Shown here: piece after piece, positions 8,806-36,322 of the stretch
Numbering within the stretch: position 1 is the first letter of the stretch
Layout of the letters: every line of letters begins with the position of its first letter
Program-made: the position numbers and the translations under genes
The notes under the pieces: generated by a model
Seen by the model: only the letters and a program-made list of their open reading frames with translations
The model's database searches: none
What the model was told of the DNA's origin: nothing
Assembly (NCBI GenBank): GCA_051532055.1
Contig: JAOPTX010000015.1
Location: 153,334-217,333 of the forward strand
DNA: 64,000 nucleotides
Direction of reading: 5' to 3'
Source: Fibrobacterales bacterium
Lineage (GTDB): Bacteria; Fibrobacterota; Fibrobacteria; Fibrobacterales; JAOPTW01

Positions 8806-8914
8806 TTGCACAACAGGGCTCTAGTTAAAGCGGAAGATTAAAAAGCGACCCACTTTTTTCCGTTCTGGATAGTTCCTTTTCTATATTGAAAGTGAATTAT
8901 TGATTGAGGCTCAT

Positions 8915-20056: not shown

Positions 20057-22340
20057 TAGCTCACTCCAAGAAGATCAGCATAATAGAAATGTAAAAAGTT
20101 CATTTCTTGTGTTAATTGTTGGTTTTGTTTTTCTTATTCTAGTCTGCCGTCTTTTTTATCTACAAGTGATTATGTATGATGAGAATGTCCGACTTTCAGA
20201 ATCTAATCGAATGCGAAAGATTATTATCAAGGCTAATCGCGGGAATATATTTTCTCGCAATAAAGAGATGCTTGTACGTAATAGAGTTTCTAACAATATC
20301 ATGGTAGAGCCTAATAAAGTTAAGGGACTGAGGGGGTTGCGTTCTGTTGTATTTAACAAAGATAGCACTGAAGATGCATTTTTAAAAAGTGAAGTATATG
20401 CAGAGAGAAAGGCCAAATTTGATGGGTATCTCAGAGAGTGGATTGAAGAAGTCGGTGATTCCATCATATATAAGACAATTCCTGATGCTTATGTTATAGA
20501 AGAAAGAAGAAAACTTACCACTGACTCCGTTTATAAAGTAGAGACTATTAGGCGACTATTTGGTGATTCCATAAAGGTATCTTTTGAAAAACTTCATTTA
20601 AAGGCCCTTCTTGATAAACAATCAGCACCGAAAAAAGACTCCATATATAGGTTACAAAAAAAACGACCCGGTTATGAAAAACGGGTTGCTATCTATGAGC
20701 GCAAATTAAAATGGTTTGTAAAGAATAGTCTGTGGGATTTTAGAATGAAATTAGAACAAGAAAAAGTTAAGAATCTTGATCTGTTTCACAACTTGTTAGC
20801 CCTTAGAAATGTTGATAATAAACAAGTATTTGACACCCTGCAAGCAATGGAGCGCATTCATGCAGCGAGCAGAAAGAATAGATTTAAACGACATCTACTA
20901 CTGGAAGATGTTGATTATGAAGTAGTATCTCTTGTAGTAGAGCATCAGGAACATTTACAGGGAGTGGTGGTTGAATATGACCCAAGGCGTTTCTATACTA
21001 GTGGTAAAACTGCTGCCCACATATTGGGATACAACTCAGAAATTACAGAGGATGAACTCAAGGATAGTCTTTTTACTGAATATAAACAGGGTGATTACAT
21101 AGGGAAGTCTGGAGTTGAAAAAATCTACGAACCAATGTTTCGCGGAGAAGATGGGATTAAATTTGTTGAAGTTGATGTGTATGGTCGAGAGCTAGGTCTT
21201 TTAGAGAGTATGCCTAATGAAAAAGCTAAGGCAGGGTATAACGTCGTAACCACAATTGATTTAGATCTTCAGAAAGTTGCTGAAGAAGCCTTTGCTGATA
21301 CGTTAAAGGGGGCCCTTGTTGCTCTTAATCCTCAGAATGGAGAGATATTGGCTATTCTATCTTCTCCAGCATATGACCCGAATATTTATTCAATAGAGGC
21401 ATCTCTCAGAAATGCTGCGATTGCTGAATTAAGAAGTGCAGATAAACCATCATATAATAGAGCAGTATTGGGGACCTATCCTCCAGGGTCACTTTTTAAA
21501 CTTTTTACATCTATTGCCGGAATGGAAACAAAGAAAGTTACACCAACATTCAAGTACAGAAAGGCGTGTAATGGAGCATTTAAATTTGGCCGAAGGGTAC
21601 AAAAATGTTGGAAAGCATCGGGTCACGGAAGAATGGATGTAATAGATGCGTTGAGAGAGTCATGTGATGTCTATTTTTATCAATTAGGCTTAGATATAGG
21701 AATGGACTCAATCAATAAATATGGGCGTATGTATGGCCTTGCGAGTAAAAGTGGGATTGACCTCCCTACAGAAAAATCAGGTTTATTAATGGATTCTACC
21801 ACATACAATAAACGCTTTAAACATAAAGGGTGGCGTTGGACTCGTGGCCAAATTCTAAATTTGGCCATAGGGCAGGGAGAGTTAGTAACCCCTCTCCAGA
21901 TGGCAAACGCTTTTGGAGCACTTGCAGCTAATGATTCATTGTACCGGCCCCACTTACTGAAAGAAGTTGTTGATGAAAATGGCCTTGTTATAAAACGTTA
22001 TGAACCAAAAGCGTTAAATGCAATTGATATATCAGATGAGACCTATAACACTATTATTACAGCAATGGAAGAAGTTATATCAGCTCCCCATGGTACTGGT
22101 GGATGGGCTCGAGTTAAAGGTGTTCGTGTAGGTGGTAAAACGGGATCTGCTGAGAATCCCCATGGTGAAAAAACCCATGCGTGGTTTGCTGCTGTTGCCC
22201 CCCTTGAGAAGCCAGAAATTGCTATAGCAGTTTTGGTCGAAAATGCAGGCCATGGTGGTTCTATTGCTGCACCAATTGCAGGCAAAGTACTGCGCCACTA
22301 TTTTGGAAGAAAAAAGAAGGTGACCAATGATACACAGTAG
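20046..22340 (+). CDS. mrdA: penicillin-binding protein 2 (elongasome transpeptidase), with a large N-terminal insertion
   Basis: Transpeptidase motifs are present: PPGSLFK (SxxK), a CDVYFY region and GGKTGSAE (KTG). 764 aa, against about 600-650 for typical PBP2. Confidence 0.9.
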   Translation: MFNNSSLQEDQHNRNVKSSFLVLIVGFVFLILVCRLFYLQVIMYDENVRLSESNRMRKIIIKANRGNIFSRNKEMLVRNRVSNNIMVEPNKVKGLRGLRSVVFNKDSTEDAFLKSEVYAERKAKFDGYLREWIEEVGDSIIYKTIPDAYVIEERRKLTTDSVYKVETIRRLFGDSIKVSFEKLHLKALLDKQSAPKKDSIYRLQKKRPGYEKRVAIYERKLKWFVKNSLWDFRMKLEQEKVKNLDLFHNLLALRNVDNKQVFDTLQAMERIHAASRKNRFKRHLLLEDVDYEVVSLVVEHQEHLQGVVVEYDPRRFYTSGKTAAHILGYNSEITEDELKDSLFTEYKQGDYIGKSGVEKIYEPMFRGEDGIKFVEVDVYGRELGLLESMPNEKAKAGYNVVTTIDLDLQKVAEEAFADTLKGALVALNPQNGEILAILSSPAYDPNIYSIEASLRNAAIAELRSADKPSYNRAVLGTYPPGSLFKLFTSIAGMETKKVTPTFKYRKACNGAFKFGRRVQKCWKASGHGRMDVIDALRESCDVYFYQLGLDIGMDSINKYGRMYGLASKSGIDLPTEKSGLLMDSTTYNKRFKHKGWRWTRGQILNLAIGQGELVTPLQMANAFGALAANDSLYRPHLLKEVVDENGLVIKRYEPKALNAIDISDETYNTIITAMEEVISAPHGTGGWARVKGVRVGGKTGSAENPHGEKTHAWFAAVAPLEKPEIAIAVLVENAGHGGSIAAPIAGKVLRHYFGRKKKVTNDTQ

Positions 22341-23559
22341 TGATGACCAGCGTGTTGATGTAACCTTTCTTACGGTACTTTTTGCAATTATTTCTATTGG
22401 TGTATTGATGGTATATTCGGCGACATTCAATGCTGAATCAGCATTCTATGAAACCTATTGGTTTAGACAAATAATTTATTTTGTTATTGGGGCCTTTATT
22501 GCAGGGGTTATCGTATTAGTTCCTCCCAAAGTCCTTTACTCTTCAGCCTACCCCCTTTACTTTATGTCCTTGCTCACACTAGCATATGTAGGGTTTGGTG
22601 GAGGTGAGTCAGTAAAAGGAGCAGCACGTTGGATTTCTATTGGTGGTTTTCGACTGCAACCTTCAGAGTTTGCTAAAATTGCCTATTTGCTTGCTATGTC
22701 TCGGATGCTCTCACAGAAAACTCTTTCACTTTCAAAGTTAAAAGGGTTTATAGGTCCTGGTGTACTTTTCATTGTTCCATTTGGTTTAGTATTGGGTCAA
22801 CCAGACCTAAGTACTGCTCTTGTATTTATGGTGATGACATTAATTGGGTTTTACTGGGCTGGGCTCTCAGTATTAGAAATAATTGTGCTTATTTCACCGG
22901 CTATTAGTGTTGTGACAGCTCACAATCAATATATTTGGATGGGAGTGTATGCATTACTCTTTTTATTGGTAATTTCACAAAAACTCGACCTTAAAGTTAC
23001 AATACTGATCTTGCTCATTAATCTCGCCGCTGGTTTTGGTTCATTTATGCTTTGGAATAATGGCCTCAAAGAGCATCAACGGTCTCGGATTCTTACTTTT
23101 GTCGATCCAATGAGGGACCCTAAAGGAGCGGGGTATCAGGTTATTCAGTCAAAGGTAACTATTGGATCTGGTGGGATATATGGAAAAGGCTTTGGTAAAG
23201 GTACTCAAGTTAATAACGAATTTTTACCAGAAGAGCATACGGACTTTATATTCTGTGTGTTGAGTGAGCAATTCGGTCTAATAGGTTGTGCTGTTGTGTT
23301 ACTCTTATATTTTATGTTGATTCAGAGGATGCTCTCAATTTGTAGAATCGTACGGGATGGGTTTCTCAATTTTATGATTATAGGGATAACCGCAATTCTT
23401 TCGTTTCATATTTTCGTTAATATTGCAATGACGTTAGGTATGATGCCTGTTACGGGGCTCCCTCTACCATTCTTTTCATATGGTGGGTCATTTGTCATGA
23501 CTTGTATGGTTCTTGTCGGACTAGTTATTAATATACGACTCAAGGGCGAATCAGACTAG
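22327..23559 (+). CDS. rodA: SEDS-family peptidoglycan polymerase RodA
   Basis: FtsW/RodA/SpoVE pattern: RLQPSEFAKI, GYQVIQSKVTIGSGGIYGKG, EEHTDFIF, GLPLPFFSYGGS. Confidence 0.9.
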   Translation: MIHSSDDQRVDVTFLTVLFAIISIGVLMVYSATFNAESAFYETYWFRQIIYFVIGAFIAGVIVLVPPKVLYSSAYPLYFMSLLTLAYVGFGGGESVKGAARWISIGGFRLQPSEFAKIAYLLAMSRMLSQKTLSLSKLKGFIGPGVLFIVPFGLVLGQPDLSTALVFMVMTLIGFYWAGLSVLEIIVLISPAISVVTAHNQYIWMGVYALLFLLVISQKLDLKVTILILLINLAAGFGSFMLWNNGLKEHQRSRILTFVDPMRDPKGAGYQVIQSKVTIGSGGIYGKGFGKGTQVNNEFLPEEHTDFIFCVLSEQFGLIGCAVVLLLYFMLIQRMLSICRIVRDGFLNFMIIGITAILSFHIFVNIAMTLGMMPVTGLPLPFFSYGGSFVMTCMVLVGLVINIRLKGESD

Positions 23560-23716: not shown

Positions 23717-26700
23717 ATGAAAAGTTTGTTGTTAATTATCACCCTTCTTATAGGGTTTGAAAGTGTCCATGCACAAAATATCTCACAAGTTGGGTTCGAC
23801 CCAGAGTCTAATCGACTCTACTTTAGTTTTGATCAACCGTATATCACAATTGGTTCTGGTACGATAACAATTGATGTAATAAATAATGGCCTCTGGGAAA
23901 ACCCTATTGTTATAACTAATTGGAATACATATGCCGTTGGTAATGGAGTTACTATGCATATTGACTTTGCAGCGATTAATGACAATAGAATTTTAAATAT
24001 AATTGGACATGGTGTAGAGCTTCACGGAAACTTTCCATCAGGGATAGTACAATCGGCTGCAACACAAAGTGAACCTGATAATAGGAAGATATATTTGACA
24101 GATGGTGGACCATATGTTGAACGGGCAAGTTACTCTGAGTATAATAATGAAATACAAATATGGTTTACTCACCTTTTTGATGCCAGTACAGCTTTTAGTG
24201 GTGAGATAAGACTTTCAAATGATTCTTTTCAAAAGAGTTACCTTCTTGAAAACATAGCAGTCACCCAGAGTCCTGGACAACCAGTTCTCAATATTGTACT
24301 ACCCGAAGAGCTTAATTCTGCAGGCTTGGACCCTTATAATTGGATAATAGCCCTTGACCCAAACGTTGTGTTTTTTACAGACAATGATGGAAATATAGAG
24401 GGCAACTATCAATTATCAACAATGAGTGAATTAAGAATGGAATATTTTGATCATTCGTATCACTTCAATTCTTCTTATGTAAACGATGATATAGGTGGGG
24501 ACCCTTATCTATACGTGGAAATGTCAGAGCAGGCCATGTATAGTGGCGCAGGAGTAGTAGTAACTGCCCTAAATTCTCTTGGGGTAACAATCGAGTCTAT
24601 ACCATTGGATTTATCAGAAAATAGCCCCCCTGTAAATTCTTTTGATTTTTCACCAAGTATCTTTCTTAATACAACTCAATATTCAAAAATTGAGTCTTGG
24701 TTAAATTTGGGATACTATATTCAAGTAAATGCAGCAGAGGGAGCGTATTATGAATATAATTCAAATAATCTACCTGCATTTTCTATTCCATTTTCAAACA
24801 CCTCAGGTTGGTATATTGAAGGATACGATACATTGTATGTACAGCAAGGGCCTACATTTTACTCTATTCTTAATAAATATGATGAATCATCACAAATGGA
24901 ATACCAGGTTACATCAAAGGATGAATCAATACTTCCTTCAAATGGAATATCTGTAAAGCCTGTTGACAATGGATTTATTATAGAAGTATTACATTATATG
25001 AAATCAGGAACTGTACTCGATATAGATATATTAGCAACTGATGTTACTACTGGCCAATTTTCTAGAAAATTAGTGACGGTTAAGAAAGAGAGTGAAGAGG
25101 TACATTTTCTGGATATTGTCCAAAGTCGATTTGTAGAGAGTGAAGGTATTAGTCAATTAGTAGTGGACCTGACTGCACCAGTATTTGTGAGCAATGCTAC
25201 ACAAATTGTTATTGAAGCACTAGAAAGTCCATTTGAACATGAATCGTTAGAAGAATTCAGGCTCAATACCTCCGAAAACCCTATTGAGGGTGATGGCACT
25301 CAACATTTTAAGATAGGGTTAAGTGATACCCATATATTGCAAATTAAACGCTGGTATAGTGAAGGACATTTTGTAAAGATCGTTTTTGAAGAGGGTGCTT
25401 TGAGTCCAAAATTTTCTGAAATAGATATAGGAGGCTACACCTTTAGAGAAATTGGCGAAGGAATGAAAAACCCAGATGCGATAGAGTTTGATTACTATCA
25501 ACAATTTACAATTGGTTTAGATATAGAGGATAAAATATCTTTTTGGGTGCATAACCCAAGAGGGCCCTACGAAGATGTTGTTATTACAGAGATAGTGAGT
25601 CGTGATCCAGGAATTGTTACTGCATATTATAGTGGACTTAATAATAATGGTGAGCAAGAAATTAACGTGACTGGAATGTCTCAGGGGAGCACTGTTTTAA
25701 CCCTTACTTTTAATAATGGTTTTGCGATTTCAGAAGAAAAGCTCTATATAAATGTAACAGAAGATGTTGTGTATAATAATGGTATTAGAACAGAAGTACC
25801 CATGAATTACTCGATCTGGCCTAATAGTTATCATAGCGTAACTCTTTGGGCTGAAGCAACACCAAACCGTGAAAATAGTTATTTCTATATAACGGGATAT
25901 TCAACAAATAGTGATGTTGTAGAATTGATGGACTATAATACTGAAAGTTATTCTGATTTTTGGCTTAACTTTGAATCACATAATTCTGGTAATGCTCAAC
26001 TGGTTTTAACTATTACGGATGAGTTGGGTAATACCACTGAGAGAATTATCGAGGTTATTGTAGAGGATAATGGAGATCCTGGAATGGGAGGAATGGGGGA
26101 TTGTTATGGGCCTTGCCTAAATGATGTAACACTTATATATGATGAGGGAGTTAATGCATTAAGCTTACGTTGGAATGATTTTGTAAATATAGCGTACGAT
26201 TCAGAAATTGTATTAATGAGTCAAAATAATAAAGAGGGAGTTTCAGAGGAACAGGAAATAAGTATTCCAATTAATATTAATAATGTAACACGAATGGGAA
26301 CAGACATGGAGTTATCTATTAGTGAAACATTGAAGAATACAATCCTTGACCAATATAGATCATCTCATAATATGAGAGCAGTAATACCAGGAGGAGTATT
26401 TTATACTAATGATAATGTGTATTATGAGCCCGATAGCAGAGAGATATGGTTTCATCTGGAACAAGGTAATAATTTTGAAATATTCGCTTCTTGGTATCAG
26501 CCTATTGAAGGAAAAGTTACTATTGAATTTGATGGGGAAATCAAAATGGATCAACTCTATGCAATGTCTGGCACCTTAAGAGTAGGAACTTCAAATACAA
26601 ATAATGTTATAATACCATTTGCTAATCCAAGTACCGAACATGCGCATTGGTGTGGAACTGAACCGAGTGGCTATGAGCAAGAGTGTACTACTACTATTGA

Positions 26701-29068
26701 TATATATATCAGTCCTGAACAGAAAAAGTCAATAACTGAACTGGGAGACCAAAATAACCTATTAATTGCAATGAATGATGGCGCATTTTATAGTCGATAT
26801 GGTAATCCATTGGTAAATGCACAGTTTGATAATAAAATACGAATTTACTTTGGGACTGACGGTGGAGAAAATTGGGTTCAATCGGCAACTCTTAGTCCTA
26901 ATGATGGTCGGATTGTACTCAATATGGATAGAGAAATTAGTTCACTCTACGATATAACTCTTGATGAATCAAATTTCAGTGGGACACAACTTTTTATGGT
27001 TATGGTAGTTGATGTCAAGGGAGTTGATAATCAGTATAACAATGATAGTGAAGGTGGTGACCTGCCACCAGATAGTGATCCACGGGTATTGTATATTTCA
27101 AGGGCTCAAAATGGTGTCCAACTATTAGGTAATCAAATTATTATAACACTCAACCAAGAAAACAGAACTAAGGTTCAAAATTGGCGTGGTGATTATCGAT
27201 ACGCTCTTGATTATGGCGATATTGGATTTATGGTTGGCCCTGAAACTATGACGAGTACAGCTGGTGAAGTGGGTGGTGGTTTTGAAAATAGTATTGAGGT
27301 ACTCCCATTTGATGATGTAGAAGGAAGTGACGTTGAGGGCTCTTCTGTACCAGCGCCTCAAGTTAAGGTAGTAACCAATGAAGGTTTGAGCTATTTTGAA
27401 TGCAGTGGAGACACCACATGGATTGTAACAGTATATCCTAACGCCATACGAAATGACTGTATTGTAGGACAAAGAGTCTATTTAGAAAAAGGGGCTACCT
27501 ATCGGGTTGTTGCACAAGATAGTGAGGGAACTCCTAGTGATGCGGTAACTCAATCAAGTTTAGGTAGGCCAGTTCCAGATATTAGAATTGATACAACAGG
27601 AACTGCCCTACTCATTGGGTTTGTTTCCGAAAATGTTGATGATATAGAAAATGCGACATTTAGCTATAGTATTCGTGTTGGTGATAGTGTTGTTGTGGGC
27701 GATACCGCTTATACAAGTTGGGGCCATCAATTCTTTGGAGATAACGGTCAAACCTATATCATAGAAGCTAAAATGGAAAGCTTAGAGAAGGGAGAATTAG
27801 GTTTTATAAATCAATTTTCAATAACAGATACTATAACCCTTATTGCCCCGAGTACGTTATCAGTAAAAGCAAATGAATGGAATATGCTCTCATTTGGTGG
27901 TACGCCATTCCAAGTCTCGCAGCTTACTGATAGTGAAACTCTTTTTAAATGGGACGATAATAAAATTGAAGACCTACTTTTTAGTAAATACCTTTCGAAA
28001 GATGAACTTGATAATATTGAGCCTGGGGAAGCGTGTTGGTATCATTCAGAAATGGATACAGAGATTGAGTTAAAATATACAACCGAGACAATTTCAACTG
28101 TGTTAAGTCATGGAGATGAAGGCTGGAATCAAGTTGCTAATCCTTATAGTTTCAATTTGAGTACCAACGCTTTTGGTGAAAATATGGAGTTTTTTAAATG
28201 GAATGGTAGTCAATATTACAAAGTTAATTATCTCAAGCCAGGTGAAGGATATTTGACCTATGTTACTTCTGATGAGAGAATTACAATAGGTAAAGTAGTT
28301 GCATGGAAAACAGATGAGCTCTATTCTCTACAGACCTATAAAAAAGCGATGACAAATGAACAAGACTGGGAAATTACCGTTACACTTACCAGTGATGATG
28401 GAACTTTGCAGGATCAATATAATGTTATAGGTGTGAAGCCTATGGCGAGTAATGGTTTTGATGAATTGGATAAATATGAACTACCGGGAACAATGGATGA
28501 TGCGGTGATATTTTCAGTTCTTGAGGGGGATAAGATTCTCAGAACTAATTTTAAAGAACCGATAGAAGACATTGGGCTATGGAAAGTATCTGTAGGGACA
28601 ACGAGTGAAAACACATCGAATGGTACCCTCTCTTTTGAAGGAGTTGATGCAATACGGAGCCTCGGTTACTCTCTATTCCTTACAGACGGAGCCGTACAAA
28701 CTGAAATTGTTGGAACTTCTATACCGGTATCATTAACTGAAAATAAAGAATATGGTATTGTTGTCGCCAGAAGCGGTGTATCACTATCGTCTCAAGCTGT
28801 TGGTGCTGGGGTATTTAATTATCCTAATCCTGTAAGAGGTTACACACAAATTAGACTCCGTGGAGTGTACTCTATGGATGATAAAGCTACACTGAGGGTT
28901 TTTGATGTGAAGGGTTCAGTGGTTTACACTGGTGTGTATAATACAGACTCTGATATTATATGGCATGCAGAGTCTAACAGTGGAACTCCATTAGAACATG
29001 GGATGTACTATTACGAGCTTCAAATTGGTGGAACATCATACTCAAATGTCATGATGGTTGCAGAGTAG
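23717..29068 (+). CDS. giant secreted repeat protein with a T9SS type-A C-terminal sorting domain
   Basis: 1783 aa with a signal peptide (..ESVHAQ). The C-terminus FNYPNPVRGYTQIRL..LRVFDVKGSVV..GMYYYELQ fits the Por secretion-tail pattern. Paralogous to the next gene. Confidence 0.8.
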   Translation: MKSLLLIITLLIGFESVHAQNISQVGFDPESNRLYFSFDQPYITIGSGTITIDVINNGLWENPIVITNWNTYAVGNGVTMHIDFAAINDNRILNIIGHGVELHGNFPSGIVQSAATQSEPDNRKIYLTDGGPYVERASYSEYNNEIQIWFTHLFDASTAFSGEIRLSNDSFQKSYLLENIAVTQSPGQPVLNIVLPEELNSAGLDPYNWIIALDPNVVFFTDNDGNIEGNYQLSTMSELRMEYFDHSYHFNSSYVNDDIGGDPYLYVEMSEQAMYSGAGVVVTALNSLGVTIESIPLDLSENSPPVNSFDFSPSIFLNTTQYSKIESWLNLGYYIQVNAAEGAYYEYNSNNLPAFSIPFSNTSGWYIEGYDTLYVQQGPTFYSILNKYDESSQMEYQVTSKDESILPSNGISVKPVDNGFIIEVLHYMKSGTVLDIDILATDVTTGQFSRKLVTVKKESEEVHFLDIVQSRFVESEGISQLVVDLTAPVFVSNATQIVIEALESPFEHESLEEFRLNTSENPIEGDGTQHFKIGLSDTHILQIKRWYSEGHFVKIVFEEGALSPKFSEIDIGGYTFREIGEGMKNPDAIEFDYYQQFTIGLDIEDKISFWVHNPRGPYEDVVITEIVSRDPGIVTAYYSGLNNNGEQEINVTGMSQGSTVLTLTFNNGFAISEEKLYINVTEDVVYNNGIRTEVPMNYSIWPNSYHSVTLWAEATPNRENSYFYITGYSTNSDVVELMDYNTESYSDFWLNFESHNSGNAQLVLTITDELGNTTERIIEVIVEDNGDPGMGGMGDCYGPCLNDVTLIYDEGVNALSLRWNDFVNIAYDSEIVLMSQNNKEGVSEEQEISIPININNVTRMGTDMELSISETLKNTILDQYRSSHNMRAVIPGGVFYTNDNVYYEPDSREIWFHLEQGNNFEIFASWYQPIEGKVTIEFDGEIKMDQLYAMSGTLRVGTSNTNNVIIPFANPSTEHAHWCGTEPSGYEQECTTTIDIYISPEQKKSITELGDQNNLLIAMNDGAFYSRYGNPLVNAQFDNKIRIYFGTDGGENWVQSATLSPNDGRIVLNMDREISSLYDITLDESNFSGTQLFMVMVVDVKGVDNQYNNDSEGGDLPPDSDPRVLYISRAQNGVQLLGNQIIITLNQENRTKVQNWRGDYRYALDYGDIGFMVGPETMTSTAGEVGGGFENSIEVLPFDDVEGSDVEGSSVPAPQVKVVTNEGLSYFECSGDTTWIVTVYPNAIRNDCIVGQRVYLEKGATYRVVAQDSEGTPSDAVTQSSLGRPVPDIRIDTTGTALLIGFVSENVDDIENATFSYSIRVGDSVVVGDTAYTSWGHQFFGDNGQTYIIEAKMESLEKGELGFINQFSITDTITLIAPSTLSVKANEWNMLSFGGTPFQVSQLTDSETLFKWDDNKIEDLLFSKYLSKDELDNIEPGEACWYHSEMDTEIELKYTTETISTVLSHGDEGWNQVANPYSFNLSTNAFGENMEFFKWNGSQYYKVNYLKPGEGYLTYVTSDERITIGKVVAWKTDELYSLQTYKKAMTNEQDWEITVTLTSDDGTLQDQYNVIGVKPMASNGFDELDKYELPGTMDDAVIFSVLEGDKILRTNFKEPIEDIGLWKVSVGTTSENTSNGTLSFEGVDAIRSLGYSLFLTDGAVQTEIVGTSIPVSLTENKEYGIVVARSGVSLSSQAVGAGVFNYPNPVRGYTQIRLRGVYSMDDKATLRVFDVKGSVVYTGVYNTDSDIIWHAESNSGTPLEHGMYYYELQIGGTSYSNVMMVAE

Positions 29069-29101
29069 TTAACTACATTTGTTCCTTATAAAAGCTGATA
29101 C

Positions 29102-29153
29102 TTAAGGGTGTTAGCCTTATTTAAGGGTCAAATAGATCAAACTTCAAATAGAT
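29102..29153 (+). repeat. two pairs of short direct repeats upstream of giant gene 2
   Basis: TTAAGGGT occurs at 29102 and 29121. TCAAATAGAT occurs at 29128 and 29144. Confidence 0.6.
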
Positions 29154-29244
29154 GTAAAGTTATGAATAACGAGTAGAACTTTTTTTCTAAAAAAGTGATA
29201 CAATCTTTAAAATGTGATGGACAGTACATTTTAGAAATTTGAAC

Positions 29245-29273
29245 TTGAGAGTAGTCTTGTATTAACCTATTCT
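29245..29273 (+). promoter_or_regulatory. sigma70-like promoter TTGAGA-N17-TATTCT for giant gene 2
   Basis: Same architecture as 23655-23683, and TATTCTAA..AGAGAG continues to match downstream. Confidence 0.45.
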
Positions 29274-29301
29274 AAAGAGAGACAGTAGTTGGGGGTCGTT
29301 A

Positions 29302-32300
29302 ATGAAAAAGTATGCTATTCTATTAATTGTTATTTTAATTCAATCAGTTTATGCACAAACTATTTTAGCTCCCCGTTATGCAGATGGGGATAGTTCTGAT
29401 GTGCGCACGATTTATCGGGGCACTACTGTCACTATGTTACTTGAGACTCAAGCTTTAAACTATAAGTTTGACTGGGATAATAGCAACCCAATTCAAGCTG
29501 TACTTGAAGATTCATCAGCTTCACATCCTGATATTCCTATAACTATTAATATCGTTGATTACTGTTTGGGAGGGTCCGATTGTATGAATATTACATTCAC
29601 GGTTCCTGATAGTGTGCGTTATGGTGAGTGGCGCTTTAAAGTTATAGGAACAACTGATCCTAATATGCGATACTACCCAATAGCAGTTGTAGAAAAGCCT
29701 CTTCTTGTTTTTAATTATCAGACTGATTCACTCTGGTTTGAATCAATAGCTACGCCTTTACAAGGTCAGATAGGGTATTTTGATCTACCGGTTAAATATA
29801 TAGATAATAATGAAATAGTAACCAGTGGAATTATTGATGGCTGGACAAGTTTAGATCTTCTGTCGGGAAATATTTGGCTTGTTCCTACAGCGCAAGCTAC
29901 TAATAATCCAAAAGTGGAAATTAAACATGGTAGTAAAATGTTTATAGATATACCAAGAAATAATACTATACAGATTGAGCCTGGTCCTTCTTATCAATTC
30001 CAGAAGCTATATGAAGCATTTGATATACCTGTTAATATAATTAATTCCCCTCATTTTATTACAAAGGCTGAAGTAGAGCCAGGCGATTCATTACTCACCA
30101 TTTACTTTTCAGAGAAGATCGATACTACCTACTATTCAAGCGGTCCGTTGACTCTTCGTAACGGAGCACAGTCTTATTCAATTTCTAATATTCAGGATCG
30201 AATTATCTACATAGGAGATTCGACTCAGGTAGTTATTCAGATGCCTCAAATGGTGCAAGGTCTTAGTCCTTCCACATGGTACTTAGAACTTGACTCTCTT
30301 GCATTTAAAACGTATCCAATTTCGGGAGCTCTTTCTGTATATAATGCAGAAGTAAAGTATGAAGATAACTTTTCTGTTGATACAGTATATAGTAATACAA
30401 CTCAACTAACGAGCGCATACATGTCACACGACATGTATAACATAACTATGTTTTGGGATGCCCCTGTTGTATTTGATAGTTTACAAGGGGCGCGTTTGGT
30501 AGCAAGAGATTCGGTTGGTGTTGCTCAAAAGTATATTGATCTATATACAAACCTATATAATAGTACTGACCCCAACCTTCCTTATGTTGGTGATAGTGTT
30601 CAATTTTATATGTCTATTATGGAAATTGACTCTGTAATAAATTGGGAAAAAGAAGGTTATCAGGTGAGTATGAGCATTCCCTATGGGCAATATAGAGATT
30701 CCTTAACAAGTAGTTTGATACCGGCACAAGAAGTGCCGATAGTACTTCTTGATGATGGTATGTACCTATATGCTTATGATAGTGTTAATGTGATAAATAG
30801 CCAATATTCATCTTTTTTAGAATTGGATTTTACAGGTTATATAGGGGAGCCAGATAATTATATGCTGGCTGCATTGGTAGATAGTAATGGTGTCATTAAT
30901 GCTTCAGATGTCTACTTTCATTGGACAGGGGTATCTTGGATGATGCGGATTGAAAACATACCTGATTCTGGAACGGTTAATCTTGCTATTCAAATTACAT
31001 CACCTTTGGATGGAACGATTAAAGAACATGGTCTCTATTTTAATATTCAAAGTAATGTGAAGCCACCACTTACCTTAATAGATTCAAGGCTTACATTTGA
31101 TAGCATTCTCAATACCAATATAATTACATATCAATACAGTCATGTTGTTGAAAGTAAACATTTAGATGTATCTCTGAAGGCTTACGATAATGAATATCTT
31201 GGCGTTCGTTATGATAGTTTACAATTAATGTCACTTTCAGTGTTAATCGACTCATCAAAAACTATTGCTATGGGATTAACTGCCGCTCAATTATATACAA
31301 TTAATAATTGGGTCACAAATGGGTACACTGTTGTTACGGAAATAAATAGAGGGTTTGTTGCATCTCTCGAGTCAGGTGTAGAGACAAAAGAAGATATTAT
31401 ACAACTGCTCCCCGAAGATTCAATTTATATAGACCCTAAATTATTAGGTCCACATATTTTACAATTACCAGTAACTCAATTAACCGGTGTAATAGATTTT
31501 GAACTTTTTATTCAGTATGGAACGCAAAGTTCCTATTTGTTTAAGCCTATTTATTTTGATTCAGCGTATATTAATTTAGTCGACTCCATTACAACGTCTT
31601 TTAAAAATATTGAGATGCCATACTCTCTCATGGGTCAAACTGGTCAGACATCATTTAAAATAGTAGCTGGTGAGAATATGTACTATGTGTTTGATACTCT
31701 TGATGTAACATTAGAAATATTTGACCCTTATTTCCCTGGTGCATATTCCCTTCTGACTCCGTCAATTGGAAATTTAGAAAGTAATAAAGACACTGTTATT
31801 ACGGTAAGTGTCGATACCAAATATCCTCTTGCTGACCTTGAGCTTATAGTAGTCAGTTCCAATGGTCTTATTCCTGCTGCAAATAGAATAATTACAAAAT
31901 CAGGATATCGAACCTGGGATGTATTACTTACCCCTGTGATGAGCGGCGAGGAAGTCCTTGTTTTTGAACTCATACATCCTGTAGATGGTGTCTATACAAG
32001 CATCACACAAACAATCACAATAGCTCCCCAACAAACGGGCTTTTCCATTGATTCGGTAGCAAGGAATATGAGCTATACTGATATTCAAGATGTGGGTATA
32101 TCCCTTAGCTCAGAGTTTAGCCTTGAATTGGATCTCTCAGATGTGACTAATATGCTCACCAGTAATTCAGTGGCATTAGCCTCAAGTATCCCTAGTATGT
32201 GGGTTTTAAAAATTGATCCTGAAATGGATGAGGTAGGAGAACTTGTTGCTCTTTTAAAAGTGGTCGATTCAAATGGGATTGTTGTCGAGGAGCATTTTGT

Positions 32301-35300
32301 CCATACCTCTGTCGCATATAATAAATCAATTGTTATAGAACCATTTGATAATTTTTTACACCCTGGACAAACTCAACTCGTAACGATACATACCCAACCT
32401 GATTTTAATTTGACTGCGGAAACGGGTGAACCAAATGTACTGCCCAATAGTTCTATTAATATTTTTAAACAAAATGATACTCAATGGATACTCTCAATCA
32501 CTCCGGAATATGGGCAGTGGGGGAATACTGATATCATAATTCGGGCATTCAATGGATCGCCATTTGAAGTCGAATTTGAAAATATTGCAATTGAAGTTGC
32601 AAATGAAGTAAATGTCGACTTACTCTATGAACCATGTGTTGGCCTCTGCCTAGAGACTGTTCAGTTTCACTATAATGCATTCAATAGTAAATTGAGCCTC
32701 TTCTTTAACGATGTTATTTCTATTGAACAAAGTGGAACGGTACAATTTACCTCATATATCTATGATAGTAAAGATGATATGGTTCCCGATATTGGTGATC
32801 AGTATGAGTTACCTATTACTACTACTGCAATCATTGCAGGTACAAGTATTGAGTATACACTGTCTGAAGAACAAAAGAGAGTCATACAGAATCTAGACCT
32901 TAATAGTGATGACCTAAGGGTGTCGGTGGCATCTGGAACCGTACAAGGGACCTCTAATGGAATATTGAATAGTGGACGATTGGTTCCTGTTCATATTGAT
33001 AAAGGACCAAAATTTCAAGTATATGGTGCACAATATGATCCATTTGATAAAGAGATACGGCTTAAATTTGATGAATCCATAGATGACAATCTTTCAATAA
33101 CCGGTTCAGTCATTAAAATTGGTTTGGGTTCCCCACCTTCATCTACTATAGATATTGTAATTAATGATTATAGTATTGGAAGAAATGACTGTGTTGACGA
33201 TTGTAATACATCATCTGAATTGTCAATTCAGTTAAGTGACTCTGATTGGAATGCGTTGGAAGAACTAGCAGAAACTTCTATAAATAATCTCTTTATCAAT
33301 ATTCCAAATGGAACATTTACGGATATTTCAAATCAAGCTCTTGAGGAATCCGCTTTCAATGATAATATTCCTCTCAGTTTTGGGGTTGGCTATGGAGAGA
33401 ATTGGATTGAAAATGCTATTGTAGATCTCGTAAATGGAAGAGTAGAAATCACGTTTAACAAAAGTCTTGAGAGTTATCAAGATAGAGTTCTTGATATTGA
33501 AAATGGCTCCCAATCAACCCTCATGGTTATTGGAGTATTAGATCAGCAATACGATGTTTCAGATAGACATCCATTAGTGAGCCAACCTAATATGGTTTAT
33601 GTAGGTAGCGCTTCTGATCAAGTAACGTATGATGCACCGCTCGGAAAGCTTTTTGTAGAACTCAATGATCAAAATAAAGCAAAGATCATGTCATGGATTA
33701 GCACTTATGGTACAACTCTTGAAGGTAAAGCGGTAGTCTATTTCCCTCATAATACCTTAGGCGCACCATCTGGTGTTAAAAACCCTGAGCTTACTGCCCT
33801 TGCTTCAACAGGAACAATAACGATTCCTGTTGAAGGGAGTGTCATTGCGGCCCCTGATGTAAAAGTAGAGACGGGAGAAGGTATTGATTACTTTGTCATG
33901 GAGGATCAGTGGAAGATGTTTGTGACAGAGACAGCTATAGCTATTAATCCAACCTCTTCTGTTGAAGAAAATGTTGAGATAGGAAGTCGCATCTATTTAC
34001 AGGCAAATAAATTTTATCATGTTGTTGCGTATGAAGATGCACAGTATTCAGAGGCTGTTGTTGTTGATGCTTCAAAATATGCGGCACTAGATTTATCAGT
34101 AAAACAATCTGGCACAGCATATAGGGTCTCGTTTGTGACACGCGATAATATTACTATGAGAAATGCTACATTCGGAATGGTTTTACATCGTCCCGGTACT
34201 CTGCAAGAAGATACCCTTCAAGGTATTAAAGATGCTCACATAACGTCTTTTGGCTTTGATGGCGATACCATTGTAGTAAATGCCTATCTTGAGTCTCTCG
34301 AGGAAGGGGACTCGACATTTATTGCATCCTTTAATAAAAGTAAAACTTTTGTATTAAAGCTTCCACAAATTAAGAAGAGTGTACCGGCATCAGAATGGAA
34401 TATGATTTCATTCGGTTCAACAGAAAAAATTGTTGCTGATCTTGGTGCCTACACAACAGTATTTTGGTGGGATGATTCTAAATTACTCGACCTACTCTAT
34501 GGACGATATCGATCAGCGGAAGAATTGTCAAGTATTAAACCAGGTCAATCGGTGTGGATATATTCTGATGTTTCGCAAGATATACATCAATATTTTGATA
34601 CTACTGAAGTAAGTATTGAACTAATTGCTGGTGATGATGGGTGGAATCAACTTGCAAATCCTTATGGGTTTAATCTTGCGGTCGAAGGTTTTGGAAATCG
34701 AGAGTTCTTTAAGTGGAATGGAGTGAGTTATAGTAAAGTAAATTACTTAAAGCCGGGTGAAGGGTATTGGTCAACGGTAAGTGAAAATGAAGTACTCACC
34801 ATAGAACGTCTTCCAGTGTGGGATACAGCTCTTTCAGAGCGTAATAGTGAAATTACCTTTAAAAAGGGTGCCGCATCACGTCAGTTGTGGGATCTTGGAA
34901 TTGCCCTCTCACTTAATAATCGTGGAGTTGTTGATCAATATAATACTATTGGTGTTAATCCGTTAGCTGATAATAAGGTTGACTTTCTAGACAAAAGAGA
35001 GCTTCCCCAAAATATGAGTGATGTTCCGTCACTATCTATGGTAATTGATGGGAAACGATACCGCAATGACCTTAAGAAACCTATAGACGGTGCCGCTGAA
35101 TGGGTGCTTGCTGTTGATGTTCCGGAGGGTAAAGGAGGAGTGGCGCATCTTCAGCTTGATGGGTACTCGTCATTAAAGAATTTGGGATATTCGCTGTATC
35201 TTGTAGATGGAAGTAATGCAAAAAAACTTGAATCAAGTAAAACCGAACTGTTGTTAAAAGGTTCGACCCAATATCGACTTATAGTAAGTGAAAACGCTTT

Positions 35301-35589
35301 AAATACAAATCATCTAACGCGAGTGCCCACGCTCTTTAACTATCCTAATCCCGTGCGAGGAGATACGAGAATAATGGTTCAAAATCTTACTATGCCCGGT
35401 AAGACCATGGTTTTTAAAGTGATGGCTGTTGATGGAAGTGTTGTATATGAAAGAGTATATTCATATCAAACATCTTTTACTTGGAATCCGGTCACTATGA
35501 GTGGGGCACCTCTTAAAAGCGGGCTCTACTTCTATAGCGTATCAACAGGGGCTCATTTTATCCAGAGCACCCTACTTATAATGGAATAG
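29302..35589 (+). CDS. giant secreted repeat protein with a T9SS type-A C-terminal sorting domain (paralogue of 23717-29068)
   Basis: 2095 aa with a signal peptide (..QSVYAQ). C-terminal FNYPNPVRGDTRIMV..FKVMAVDGSVV..GLYFYSV. Its C-terminal ~985 aa are colinear with gene 1. Confidence 0.8.
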   Translation: MKKYAILLIVILIQSVYAQTILAPRYADGDSSDVRTIYRGTTVTMLLETQALNYKFDWDNSNPIQAVLEDSSASHPDIPITINIVDYCLGGSDCMNITFTVPDSVRYGEWRFKVIGTTDPNMRYYPIAVVEKPLLVFNYQTDSLWFESIATPLQGQIGYFDLPVKYIDNNEIVTSGIIDGWTSLDLLSGNIWLVPTAQATNNPKVEIKHGSKMFIDIPRNNTIQIEPGPSYQFQKLYEAFDIPVNIINSPHFITKAEVEPGDSLLTIYFSEKIDTTYYSSGPLTLRNGAQSYSISNIQDRIIYIGDSTQVVIQMPQMVQGLSPSTWYLELDSLAFKTYPISGALSVYNAEVKYEDNFSVDTVYSNTTQLTSAYMSHDMYNITMFWDAPVVFDSLQGARLVARDSVGVAQKYIDLYTNLYNSTDPNLPYVGDSVQFYMSIMEIDSVINWEKEGYQVSMSIPYGQYRDSLTSSLIPAQEVPIVLLDDGMYLYAYDSVNVINSQYSSFLELDFTGYIGEPDNYMLAALVDSNGVINASDVYFHWTGVSWMMRIENIPDSGTVNLAIQITSPLDGTIKEHGLYFNIQSNVKPPLTLIDSRLTFDSILNTNIITYQYSHVVESKHLDVSLKAYDNEYLGVRYDSLQLMSLSVLIDSSKTIAMGLTAAQLYTINNWVTNGYTVVTEINRGFVASLESGVETKEDIIQLLPEDSIYIDPKLLGPHILQLPVTQLTGVIDFELFIQYGTQSSYLFKPIYFDSAYINLVDSITTSFKNIEMPYSLMGQTGQTSFKIVAGENMYYVFDTLDVTLEIFDPYFPGAYSLLTPSIGNLESNKDTVITVSVDTKYPLADLELIVVSSNGLIPAANRIITKSGYRTWDVLLTPVMSGEEVLVFELIHPVDGVYTSITQTITIAPQQTGFSIDSVARNMSYTDIQDVGISLSSEFSLELDLSDVTNMLTSNSVALASSIPSMWVLKIDPEMDEVGELVALLKVVDSNGIVVEEHFVHTSVAYNKSIVIEPFDNFLHPGQTQLVTIHTQPDFNLTAETGEPNVLPNSSINIFKQNDTQWILSITPEYGQWGNTDIIIRAFNGSPFEVEFENIAIEVANEVNVDLLYEPCVGLCLETVQFHYNAFNSKLSLFFNDVISIEQSGTVQFTSYIYDSKDDMVPDIGDQYELPITTTAIIAGTSIEYTLSEEQKRVIQNLDLNSDDLRVSVASGTVQGTSNGILNSGRLVPVHIDKGPKFQVYGAQYDPFDKEIRLKFDESIDDNLSITGSVIKIGLGSPPSSTIDIVINDYSIGRNDCVDDCNTSSELSIQLSDSDWNALEELAETSINNLFINIPNGTFTDISNQALEESAFNDNIPLSFGVGYGENWIENAIVDLVNGRVEITFNKSLESYQDRVLDIENGSQSTLMVIGVLDQQYDVSDRHPLVSQPNMVYVGSASDQVTYDAPLGKLFVELNDQNKAKIMSWISTYGTTLEGKAVVYFPHNTLGAPSGVKNPELTALASTGTITIPVEGSVIAAPDVKVETGEGIDYFVMEDQWKMFVTETAIAINPTSSVEENVEIGSRIYLQANKFYHVVAYEDAQYSEAVVVDASKYAALDLSVKQSGTAYRVSFVTRDNITMRNATFGMVLHRPGTLQEDTLQGIKDAHITSFGFDGDTIVVNAYLESLEEGDSTFIASFNKSKTFVLKLPQIKKSVPASEWNMISFGSTEKIVADLGAYTTVFWWDDSKLLDLLYGRYRSAEELSSIKPGQSVWIYSDVSQDIHQYFDTTEVSIELIAGDDGWNQLANPYGFNLAVEGFGNREFFKWNGVSYSKVNYLKPGEGYWSTVSENEVLTIERLPVWDTALSERNSEITFKKGAASRQLWDLGIALSLNNRGVVDQYNTIGVNPLADNKVDFLDKRELPQNMSDVPSLSMVIDGKRYRNDLKKPIDGAAEWVLAVDVPEGKGGVAHLQLDGYSSLKNLGYSLYLVDGSNAKKLESSKTELLLKGSTQYRLIVSENALNTNHLTRVPTLFNYPNPVRGDTRIMVQNLTMPGKTMVFKVMAVDGSVVYERVYSYQTSFTWNPVTMSGAPLKSGLYFYSVSTGAHFIQSTLLIME

Positions 35590-35590
35590 A

Positions 35591-36322
35591 ATGAAAAAGA
35601 GGTTGAGTAACATTGTACATCAGAAATTTGCTCTACTAGATGCTCTGCTTTTTGGTGATCAATGCAGCTACTGCCATGAGAAAAAGCGTAAAAATTATCT
35701 TATGTGTGATACATGTACCCAAAAGCTATCACTGTTTTCAGAGTCTGATGCGCAAGTACAGCTGCCAAATAGTGATAATAGATTGTTATCACTTTTTCCT
35801 ATGACAGAATTAACTAAAAAGATTATCCATGATATTAAGTATAACCAACTACCGTCTCTCGCGACCCAATTATTAAAAGATACTCCCGTCAATTACTTTC
35901 ATGATATTGATTCACAGACACTATTAGTTCCTGTTCCATTACATAGTAAAAGAATGAGAGAGCGAGGGTATAATCAAGCTAAAGTAATTGCTCAAGGTGT
36001 TGCAGAGAGGACGGGGGCTACTGTCGTATCTCACCTATTAAAAAAGAATCATCATACAGGAAGTCAAACAAAATTGGGTAAAGAAGAGCGTCATCAAAAT
36101 ATGCAGAACGTTTTTAGTCTTATAAGAGGAACATCAATATCGGGAAAAAATGTAGTTGTTATTGATGACGTGTTTACAACAGGAGCAACAACTCAATCAT
36201 GTATAAATGCTTTGGAAAAAGGGAATCCTCAAAGCTTACATGTATTTACTCTCGTTCGGGCTGATATACAAGAAAAAAGTGATTTTGCAAAAGAGTTACA
36301 ATTGCACAATAATAATTTATGA
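35591..36322 (+). CDS. comF: ComF-family phosphoribosyltransferase-fold protein
   Basis: N-terminal Cys pairs (CSYC..CDTC) and the PRPP motif VVVIDDVFTTGATT. Confidence 0.8.
   Translation: MKKRLSNIVHQKFALLDALLFGDQCSYCHEKKRKNYLMCDTCTQKLSLFSESDAQVQLPNSDNRLLSLFPMTELTKKIIHDIKYNQLPSLATQLLKDTPVNYFHDIDSQTLLVPVPLHSKRMRERGYNQAKVIAQGVAERTGATVVSHLLKKNHHTGSQTKLGKEERHQNMQNVFSLIRGTSISGKNVVVIDDVFTTGATTQSCINALEKGNPQSLHVFTLVRADIQEKSDFAKELQLHNNNL

Follow-up and report, generated by a model that had tools for sequence, protein, structure and literature searches.

The window analysed here, a 64,000-nucleotide (nt) stretch from a marine Fibrobacterales bacterium that degrades cellulose (contig JAOPTX010000015.1, positions 153,334 to 217,333), contains two adjacent genes, p1 and p2, whose giant products of 1783 and 2095 amino acids (aa) take up 18.2% of it (Table 1). 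A first-pass annotation, made from the sequence alone, had placed both genes at exactly these coordinates, put their share at about 18%, and interpreted the products as surface-layer or adhesin-like type IX secretion system (T9SS) cargo with no catalytic domain. Our analysis supports that interpretation: Pfam and NCBIfam find nothing outside the C-terminal tail, the modelled fold is a string of β beads, and the tails of the wider family point to a T9SS sorting signal. Missing from the earlier account was a two-domain cassette of about 320 residues directly before the tail, which in our sequence comparisons emerges as the most conserved and most widespread part of both proteins.

Both proteins are acidic and Cys-poor, and 12 of their 13 cysteines sit in close pairs (the lone residue is Cys1440 of p1), which are probably loop disulfides or a metal site. 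Two of these pairs, CYGPC (p1 aa 796, nt 26102) and CVGLC (p2 aa 1112, nt 32635), open the C-terminal halves where they had first been reported. A CxxxC pair at this point is kept in most full-length relatives, with the variant CGGIFC in relative P0007. The motifs HExxH, DxDxD, and YD are all absent from p1 and p2 in a motif scan, as previously observed, and Pfam and NCBIfam detect no catalytic or other domain outside the tail in p1, p2, or nine relatives (some 1,700 to 2,000 residues in each). Promoter and terminator consensus scans around the two genes scored no better than shuffled background.

The two genes are paralogous over more of their length than had been recognized. Colinearity from the Cys pairs to the end is confirmed by BLASTP, which aligns p1 796-1783 with p2 1112-2095 (30% identity, 50% positives, E = 2e-132); the alignment begins exactly at CYGPC and CVGLC and contains all of the matching string pairs quoted in the first-pass annotation. 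A laxer BLAST carries this C-terminal block back to p1 660 and p2 984 and also brings out weak colinearity of the N-terminal parts (p1 14-570 against p2 146-694; 19% identity, E = 2e-8). Because the N-terminal parts align as well, the paralogy extends over nearly the whole length and not the C-terminal half alone, and the surplus length of p2 can be located in an extra N-terminal domain of about 130 residues and about 200 residues in mid-protein. The N-terminal region of p2 runs from the extra domain, with Cys88 and Cys94, through helix-bearing modules to Ig-like domains at about aa 700-1105. Identity between p1 and p2 is 25% in the three modules after the Cys pair, 35% in the next two domains (which in p1 contain nearly invariant GTA..F ... 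NATF strands), 49% in the first cassette domain, the best-conserved part of the pair, and 29% in the second. The N-terminal colinearity goes beyond the earlier account, as does the finding that p1 and p2 are an old paralogue pair in a conserved but fast-evolving locus.

Table 1. Features of the p1-p2 locus and its flanks (window coordinates; the arrow marks the cleavage site; AF2, AlphaFold 2; HMM, hidden Markov model; CTD, C-terminal domain; ORF, open reading frame).
Feature	Position (nt)	Strand	Residues and remarks	Basis
p1 gene	23717..29068	+	1783 aa; mature ~197 kDa, pI 4.2	ORF list, translation, composition
p1 Sec signal peptide	23717..23773	+	aa 1-19, cleavage VHA↓Q	Read off translation
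p1 N-terminal variable region	23774..26101	+	aa 20-795; at least three helix-bearing module copies	Module HMM, lax BLAST, motif positions
p1 three consecutive modules	26102..27301	+	aa 796-917, 920-1046, 1048-1195; CYGPC pair at start	Homology to p2 1112-1501
p1 two plain β-sandwich domains	27329..27853	+	aa ~1205-1379	Alignment to modelled p2 1510-1690
p1 pre-CTD cassette	27854..28801	+	aa 1380-1695	AF2 model, profile search
p1 T9SS type A-like C-terminal sorting domain (very probable)	28814..29065	+	aa 1700-1783	Pfam/NCBIfam, AF2, PDB profile search
p1 Cys pairs	26102-26116; 26651-26686; 27401-27460		Cys 796/800; 979/990; 1229/1248	
Intergenic spacer, 233 nt	29069..29301	None	Weak hairpin 29094-29115	Consensus scan
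p2 gene	29302..35589	+	2095 aa; mature ~231 kDa, pI 4.4	ORF list, translation, composition
p2 Sec signal peptide	29302..29355	+	aa 1-18, cleavage VYA↓Q	Read off translation
p2 N-terminal region	29356..32634	+	aa 19-1111	BLAST, motif positions, self-hhalign, module HMM
p2 three consecutive modules	32635..33804	+	aa 1112-1235, 1238-1361, 1364-1501	AF2 model
p2 module helix 1			aa 1189-1200, EEQKRVIQNLDL	AF2 model
p2 module helix 2			aa 1313-1325, DSDWNALEELAET	AF2 model
p2 module helix 3			aa 1456-1473, DQNKAKIMSWISTYGTTL	AF2 model
p2 two plain β-sandwich domains	33829..34371	+	aa 1510-1690	AF2 model
p2 pre-CTD cassette	34372..35325	+	aa 1691-2008	BLASTP to p1, profile search
p2 T9SS type A-like C-terminal sorting domain (very probable)	35341..35586	+	aa 2014-2095	Pfam/NCBIfam, PDB profile search
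p2 Cys pairs	29563-29583; 32635-32649; 33190-33204		Cys 88/94; 1112/1116; 1297/1301	
rodA, upstream flank	22327..23559	+	Last gene of mreB-mreC-mreD-PBP2-rodA	Pfam
comF-like phosphoribosyltransferase, downstream flank	35591..36322	+		Pfam

The first cassette domain of p1 is a Trp-rich β domain that is internally duplicated, with the motifs EWNMLSFG/PGEACW and GWNQVANPY/PGEGY. Its halves align by hhalign at E = 5e-12, each following the pattern W-x-M/Q...F-x-W...Y...PG-x-G-Y-W. Across 16 distant cassette members, Trp19, Trp43, Trp72, Trp101, and Trp126 (alignment numbering) are invariant or nearly so, and Tyr and Asn residues are conserved as well. The second domain is a β-sandwich. An alignment of 16 sequences was used for an AF2 model of p1 1370-1783 (mean predicted local distance difference test [pLDDT] 83.7, predicted template modeling score [pTM] 0.70), in which three β domains are seen, comprising model residues 1-165, 178-320, and a seven-stranded tail at 329-414. 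The cassette has no sequence match in Pfam, NCBIfam, or the PDB; when the PDB was searched with its profile, matches fell on the tail alone. Foldseek searches of PDB and BFVD with the cassette-plus-tail model returned generic multidomain β arrays at template modeling (TM) scores below 0.2, namely S-layer protein 7ptp (top), MG domains of complement, repeats of adhesins, and, in GH2 enzymes, the part made up of sugar-binding and Ig domains, along with small-domain matches to sorting-domain-like proteins.

The cassette is also the most widely distributed part of the giants. A profile of the two C-terminal halves without the tail, run exhaustively with HMMER against 1.84 billion representatives, found 324 proteins (clusters at 50% identity) at E ≤ 1e-3, 12 of them at E ≤ 1e-30; the matches include p2 itself and a partial p1 orthologue. 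Four full-length relatives are colinear with p1 and p2 at 28-38% identity, one of the p1 type (P0003) and three of the p2 type (P0004, P0005, and P0006), and with these three the N-terminal region of p2 is colinear at full length. Among the best 150 of the 324 matches, about 140 cover only the last ~320 profile positions, that is, the cassette. A cassette-plus-tail HMM matches 149 of these 150, and a median of 9 residues follows the match, which places the unit at the extreme C-terminus of carriers that range from 377 to 4187 aa. Overall, the cassette stands immediately ahead of the sorting domain in most of the 324 clusters. Eight members have a source name that gives the organism, and every one of them belongs to Fibrobacterota (Fibrobacterales, Chitinivibrionales, "Fibrobacteria," Fibrobacter intestinalis, and uncultured Fibrobacter). 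In a sample of 19 members, the passengers hold PKD, Big_9, He_PIG, fn3, Ig_3, or Y_Y_Y domains only, or nothing recognizable, and no enzyme domain was found among them; member P0017 is a VCBS repeat-containing protein by source name. A word-indexed protein search returned nothing with p1 and nothing with its cassette alone; with the cassette-plus-tail profile it was swamped by tail-only matches, and the cassette was covered in a single protein, P0151. Looking up the exact p2 sequence in a contig index gave no match, and of two metagenome scans, one was without the locus and the other yielded one weak locus (L006).

The N-termini are consistent with export. Both proteins begin with the Sec-type signal peptides that had been assigned to them, MKSLLLIITLLIGFESVHA in p1 and MKKYAILLIVILIQSVYA in p2, each followed by Gln; as read off the sequence, they are built of MK(S/K), a hydrophobic core, and VHA↓Q or VYA↓Q. 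Gln stands directly after the probable signal-peptidase site in all seven family members read: VHA↓Q and VYA↓Q in the window (nt 23774 and 29356), SHA↓Q, VYS↓Q, GYS↓Q, and VSA↓Q among P0003, P0005, P0006, and P0010, and probably also P0004, whose site (...YIQAAQF...) is ambiguous. This is curious in Fibrobacterota given that the "Q-rule" is reported to be specific to Bacteroidetes and not to hold for the whole Fibrobacteres-Chlorobi-Bacteroidetes (FCB) group (PMC5837995).

The C-terminal tails had been described as near-identical Por-type tails. The FNYPNPVRG motif is indeed common to both, but the whole 84-residue tail is just 36% identical. Against Por_Secre_tail and TIGR04183 the tails give E values of 1e-4 to 3e-3, significant yet sub-threshold, and all tail matches (Por_Secre_tail, TIGR04183, CHU_C, and FlgD_ig) stay under curated cut-offs at E values of about 1e-4 to 5e-3. 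While both proteins thus narrowly miss the T9SS CTD profiles, formally the outcome that the first-pass annotation had named as refuting its reading, family-level evidence supports the assignment. PF18962 is matched by 10 of 11 proteins (p1, p2, and nine relatives; best E = 5.5e-6). A profile of 16 family tails finds the solved PorU CTD (6za2) as its best match in the PDB (E = 2.6e-5), with further matches to FlgD Ig domains (2e-3), the T9SS CTD 8glk/8glj, PorZ 5m11 (0.02), and HBP35 5y1a (0.14), and it also retrieves annotated T9SS type A proteins from a large database. Homologues carry T9SS or Por sorting-domain names in NCBI and UniRef, one of them, MGL1936838.1, being named a T9SS type A sorting domain-containing protein by NCBI. 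In the AF2 model the p1 tail forms seven strands within aa 1698-1781 (pLDDT mostly above 80), which fits the 3+4 sandwich described for T9SS CTDs (PMC11285876). The secretion system itself is reported for the FCB superphylum (PMC11205867, PMC12421860). Judged from sequence profiles, the tail is therefore very probably a T9SS signal of type A-like character, in a divergent form of Fibrobacterota style.

Between the signal peptide and the cassette, p1 and p2 are strings of repeated domains. The N-terminal repeat module noticed at first reading is real, its motif L(S/T)xxQxxxIxxW lying at p1 317 and 535 and at p2 437 and 659. Plain BLAST finds no internal repeats in p1 or p2; self-hhalign of a 7-sequence family profile gives off-diagonal alignments of p2 422-1491 with 179-1344 (E = 1.7e-17) and of 517-718 with 1032-1244 (E = 2e-7). 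An HMM trained only on the three modules of the C-terminal half, with 40 shuffled sequences as control (best 5.8e-3), detects N-terminal copies at p1 22-118 (7e-6), 224-346 (1.5e-3), and 508-566 (7e-4) and at p2 252-314 (4e-6) and 603-694 (1.8e-3), and the motif also occurs at p2 437-465. The two weakest of these matches are marginal alone, yet they are located at predicted positions. An iterated version of the HMM drifted into the flanks and was trained on its own matches; it was discarded in favour of the un-iterated search.

In an AF2 model of p2 1105-1690 (10-sequence alignment, pLDDT 80, pTM 0.59), three consecutive modules of 120-140 residues are followed by two plain sandwiches. Each module is modelled as a β-sandwich with a single α-helix between late strands, and this embedded helix corresponds exactly to L(S/T)xxQxxxIxxW. 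Within it, S/T-x-x-Q/E resembles a helix N-cap, and the subsequent GYxVxV forms the next strand. The three modules are pairwise homologous by hhalign, with E = 1e-7 between the two most similar and 6e-4 and 2e-3 in the remaining comparisons. Foldseek returned 216 PDB matches to the model at E ≤ 1e-3, the best being FN3/Ig arrays of cytokine receptors, fibronectin, and contactin (E to 2.6e-10, probability 1.0), with low global TM scores as expected of flexible bead chains. Because the matches are FN3/Ig arrays, the module is, by its model, a divergent FN3/Ig-like β-sandwich with an added helix, outside any sequence-defined repeat family. Profiles for fn3, Big_x, PKD, Big_5/SbsA-Ig, and cadherin have no match at E ≤ 0.1 in p1, p2, or the nine relatives, and FlgD_ig appears only sub-threshold and only on the tail; the earlier description of an unclassified module therefore stands. 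The modules map onto no described adhesin or S-layer family, their fold being generic and FN3/Ig-like. Overall, p1 and p2 are predicted to consist of some 15 to 18 Ig/FN3-like beads, all-β in the AF2 models. Some relatives carry low-complexity insertions between beads that are not seen in p1 or p2, (SSSSYIPL)n at about aa 360-460 of P0003 and (DTT[IL]I)n at about aa 1590-1625 of P0006, and the N-terminal halves of P0008 and P0009 contain long Ser-rich linkers without counterpart in p1 or p2.

A GTDB genome scan found one close relative of the locus, on contig JAOPTW010000086.1 (L001) of "Fibrobacterales bacterium tPB_Fibr2." This contig starts inside a p1 orthologue and continues with a 2095-aa p2 orthologue, a comF-like gene, and a GGDEF gene in the same order as in the window. 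Together with a second member of the Fibrobacteres, this organism dominated a deep-sea biofilm, at a depth of 855 m, that was digesting a cellulose board (PMC11980830). Its p1 orthologue shows 87% identity across the last 920 aa and a ratio of nonsynonymous to synonymous substitution rates (dN/dS) of 0.06-0.17; its p2 orthologue (window 29302-35586 against L001 2999-9283) is 75% identical over 2095 aa with zero indels. Windowed dN/dS values of 0.04-0.49 indicate that both proteins are functional and under purifying selection. For a repeat protein in which 25% of residues differ and nucleotide identity falls to 63% in places, p2 is under an unusual constraint on length.

Divergence from tPB_Fibr2 follows a mosaic pattern. 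The segments 26305-27800 and 29300-30500 are about 93-96% identical in nucleotides, against 74-81% for 27805-29000 (the p1 cassette and tail). Identity is 63-80% over roughly 30800-36800, a stretch that takes in most of p2, all of comF, and the GGDEF gene in part; dS is about 0.1-0.2 in the conserved blocks and 0.8 to more than 2 in the divergent ones. The comF product is 74% identical in L001, and the aminotransferase past the divergent block is 96% identical. This pattern suggests block replacement by recombination with divergent alleles, as far as sequence divergence can indicate.

The arrangement recurs in GCA_047518385.1 (JAOPTP), a whole-community metagenome assembly of the tPB_BHT04 biofilm from the same study (PMC11980830); as it is a community assembly, its loci L002-L005 are not assignable to a single organism. 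On JAOPTP010003023.1 (L002/L005, 1159-17008), rodA is followed by three giants (1949, 2174, and 2120 aa) and a comF-like gene. The RodA encoded there is 91% identical to that of the window (77% at the nucleotide level), and the comF-like gene after the array shows 39% identity to the window copy over its first 64 aa. Since this contig repeats the order rodA-[giants]-comF, the locus has kept its position and both types of paralogue are older than the split, with the giants diverging far faster than their flank (30-38% identity against 91% for RodA). The middle giant is of the p2 type, and P0004 seems to be a close relative of that protein in truncated form. Additional members of the family are found singly at other places in the same assembly.

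The window is otherwise ordinary chromosome, with CusCBA-like efflux genes, ExbB/ExbD/TonB, and mreB-mreC-mreD-PBP2-rodA directly upstream of p1, and with a comF-like phosphoribosyltransferase gene and genes for a GGDEF protein, an aminotransferase, a GAF-HD protein, and glutamate synthase downstream of p2. A functional link of p1 and p2 to the mreBCD-PBP2-rodA operon was considered and dropped, since conservation of position is all that speaks for it. Just past the giants lie genes for a GGDEF diguanylate cyclase (36317-37213, minus strand) and for the GAF-HD protein (HD-GYP-like, PF13487; 38978-40147, plus strand); cyclic-di-GMP signalling often controls surface adhesins. Two ORFs of the window are without a Pfam match, 15813-17225 (470 aa, at E ≤ 1e-3), which lies between the TonB-like gene and mreB, and 8900-9940 (346 aa, at 1e-4).

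We propose, with a probability of roughly 0.6, that p1 and p2 are non-enzymatic structural or adhesive fibrils, or a coat, of the Fibrobacterales cell that are exported by the T9SS and anchored at the surface. This reading draws on the signal peptides, the acidic Cys-poor sequence, the β beads, the lack of a catalytic domain, the cassette and tail, and the rapid, mosaic divergence of the distal parts under purifying selection. In this model, Sec would carry the proteins across the inner membrane by their N-terminal signal peptides, after which the T9SS would recognize the C-terminal sorting domain of about 80 residues and pass them through the outer membrane. There, by analogy with T9SS type A cargo that has been studied, the sorting domain would be cut off and the newly formed C-terminus attached to the outer leaflet. 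The cassette would then lie next to the membrane as a base for anchoring, spacing, or lateral assembly, while the 15 to 18 beads would project outward by tens of nanometers, assuming a few nanometers per bead. The fast-evolving N-terminal beads would form the exposed, interacting end, which would bind cellulose fibre, the matrix of the biofilm, or other cells and would be the part that phages and grazers encounter.

Several points weigh against this proposal. Scores for the individual tails lie below curated cut-offs both for p1 (TIGR04183, 17.3 against 23 bits; PF18962, 21.4 against 27) and for p2 (22.0 against 23 and 21.3 against 27), and no T9SS component is encoded within the 64-kb window. 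The role given to the cassette is deduced solely from its position and conservation. The AF2 models were built on alignments of just 10-16 sequences, and the Foldseek matches are generic, with TM below 0.25 for all array matches and higher values only for single small domains (TMt to 0.60). Part of the mosaicism could reflect mixed-strain or chimeric assembly of the metagenome-assembled genome.

An alternative hypothesis, which we regard as doubtful, is that p1 and p2 co-assemble into a two-dimensional S-layer lattice similar to that of TfsA/TfsB, with the cassette supplying the lattice contacts. They are an adjacent paralogous pair, the pairing is conserved in relatives, and they are acidic, Cys-poor, and all-β, while a p2 that is 25% divergent from its orthologue without an indel over 2095 aa suggests tight geometric constraint. 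TfsA and TfsB set a precedent for T9SS cargo that forms an S-layer (PMC8869499), and an in-situ S-layer protein, 7ptp, is the best Foldseek match of the cassette model. However, this match reaches a TM of only 0.16 and is to a generic Ig array, and a chain of some 18 beads is more usual in a fibril than in the subunit of a lattice. A cassette found on proteins of 377-4187 aa and in single unpaired genes is hard to fit to one lattice, and the copy number at the locus varies between two and three. The Trp-rich cassette domain could instead be a carbohydrate-binding module, so that p1 and p2 act as substrate-binding scaffolds that hold the cell or its vesicles on cellulose, with the beads as spacers. 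Five invariant Trp with conserved Tyr and Asn in 16 distant members, a duplication that would give two similar faces, some local Foldseek matches to the sugar-binding and Ig part of GH2, and relatives that live on cellulose (PMC11980830) would all be compatible with such a role. Yet no carbohydrate-binding module family in Pfam matches, the GH2 matches have TM of about 0.16, and the conserved aromatics may be mere core residues; moreover, C-terminal anchoring would leave the cassette adjacent to the membrane, at the wrong end to reach a solid substrate. We regard this role as improbable.

Two further readings turn on the tail. As giant, repetitive, T9SS-type cargo, p1 and p2 might be mobile adhesins of the SprB/RemA kind, moved by the T9SS motor in gliding, and the best Pfam match of the p1 tail is in fact the type B CTD family CHU_C (E = 5.5e-5). 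This match, however, is under its cut-off (23.7 against 27) and has no equivalent in p2, the type B CTD models of NCBIfam match neither protein, no PorP/SprF-like partner gene is adjacent (the flanks being rodA and the comF-like gene), and relatives are annotated as type A, all of which makes gliding very unlikely. It is equally far-fetched that the tail is a FlgD-type Ig domain without a sorting role, in which case p1 and p2 would be periplasmic or exported in some other way. The tails, which fall under the T9SS cut-offs, do also match FlgD_ig, with the family profile matching FlgD structures at E = 2e-3. FlgD_ig and T9SS CTD profiles are nevertheless known to cross-match, the PorU CTD precedes FlgD as the best PDB match, the domain sits at the extreme C-terminus (149 of the 150 best cassette hits) and contains the NYPNP motif, and many distant cassette proteins pass or nearly pass PF18962.

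Returning to surface fibrils or a coat exported by the T9SS, we speculate that the cassette could be a Fibrobacterota-specific attachment or assembly module that provides a second layer of T9SS anchoring, either by docking on a lineage-specific outer-membrane or lipopolysaccharide partner or by lateral polymerization. Under this scenario, p1 and p2, joined by a third paralogue in relatives, would build a heteromeric, antigenically variable coat that is exchanged between strains by recombination and serves as the main interface with substrate and phages. Drawn from sequence patterns, this extension is possible, though on the unlikely side. Fibrobacterota are specialist cellulose degraders, in which attachment to the fibre is essential and only partly understood. 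The at least 324 clusters (50% identity) that combine the unnamed cassette with a T9SS tail represent a large unannotated class of Fibrobacterota surface proteins, and the cassette is a concrete domain to test for anchoring or assembly. Because Fibrobacter intestinalis encodes a homologue (WP_078776924.1), it can be studied in a cultured organism. Conserved in position, variable in copy number, and diverging as a mosaic while under purifying selection, rodA-[giants]-comF looks like a strain-variable surface locus, which would be relevant to phage-host and strain-tracking work in cellulose-degrading communities.

Among known systems, T9SS type A cargo (TIGR04183/PF18962) of the FCB superphylum shares with p1 and p2 a Sec signal, a seven-stranded C-terminal sandwich of about 80 residues with a PNP motif, and a tail profile similar to the solved PorU, PorZ, and HBP35 CTDs; p1 and p2 differ in scoring just under the cut-offs and in the ~320-residue cassette that precedes the tail. 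TfsA and TfsB are encoded side by side in Tannerella. The TfsA/TfsB pair of Tannerella forsythia comprises two large non-enzymatic T9SS cargo proteins that make up a surface structure (PMC8869499), as is proposed for p1 and p2. The latter likewise come from two adjacent large genes with CTD-like tails but are longer (1783 and 2095 aa), bead-like, and from another phylum, the likeness being one of arrangement. FN3 and bacterial Ig-like repeat adhesins share the beads-on-a-string β-sandwiches, and the Foldseek matches include Big-1 and BIG2 proteins and 6xi3, the extending region of a large adhesion protein; unlike them, p1 and p2 match no fn3, Big_x, PKD, or cadherin profile and have an extra α-helix between late strands. 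The gliding adhesins SprB and RemA of Flavobacteria use type B CTDs and a nearby PorP/SprF partner gene; they too are giant repetitive surface proteins exported by the T9SS, but p1 and p2 have neither a type B CTD match in NCBIfam nor an adjacent PorP/SprF gene. Fib_succ_major and fibro-slime are domains of restricted lineage that occur in surface proteins of Fibrobacter and are associated with its life on cellulose. The cassette resembles them in being, among named members, lineage-restricted but is a different, unnamed module, as neither Fib_succ_major (PF09603/TIGR02145) nor fibro-slime (TIGR02148) matches p1, p2, or the nine relatives. Giant Ig-repeat T9SS cargo is thus already familiar, and nothing known is overturned; what is new is the cassette before the tail together with the helix-bearing module, both undescribed in Pfam, NCBIfam, and the PDB.

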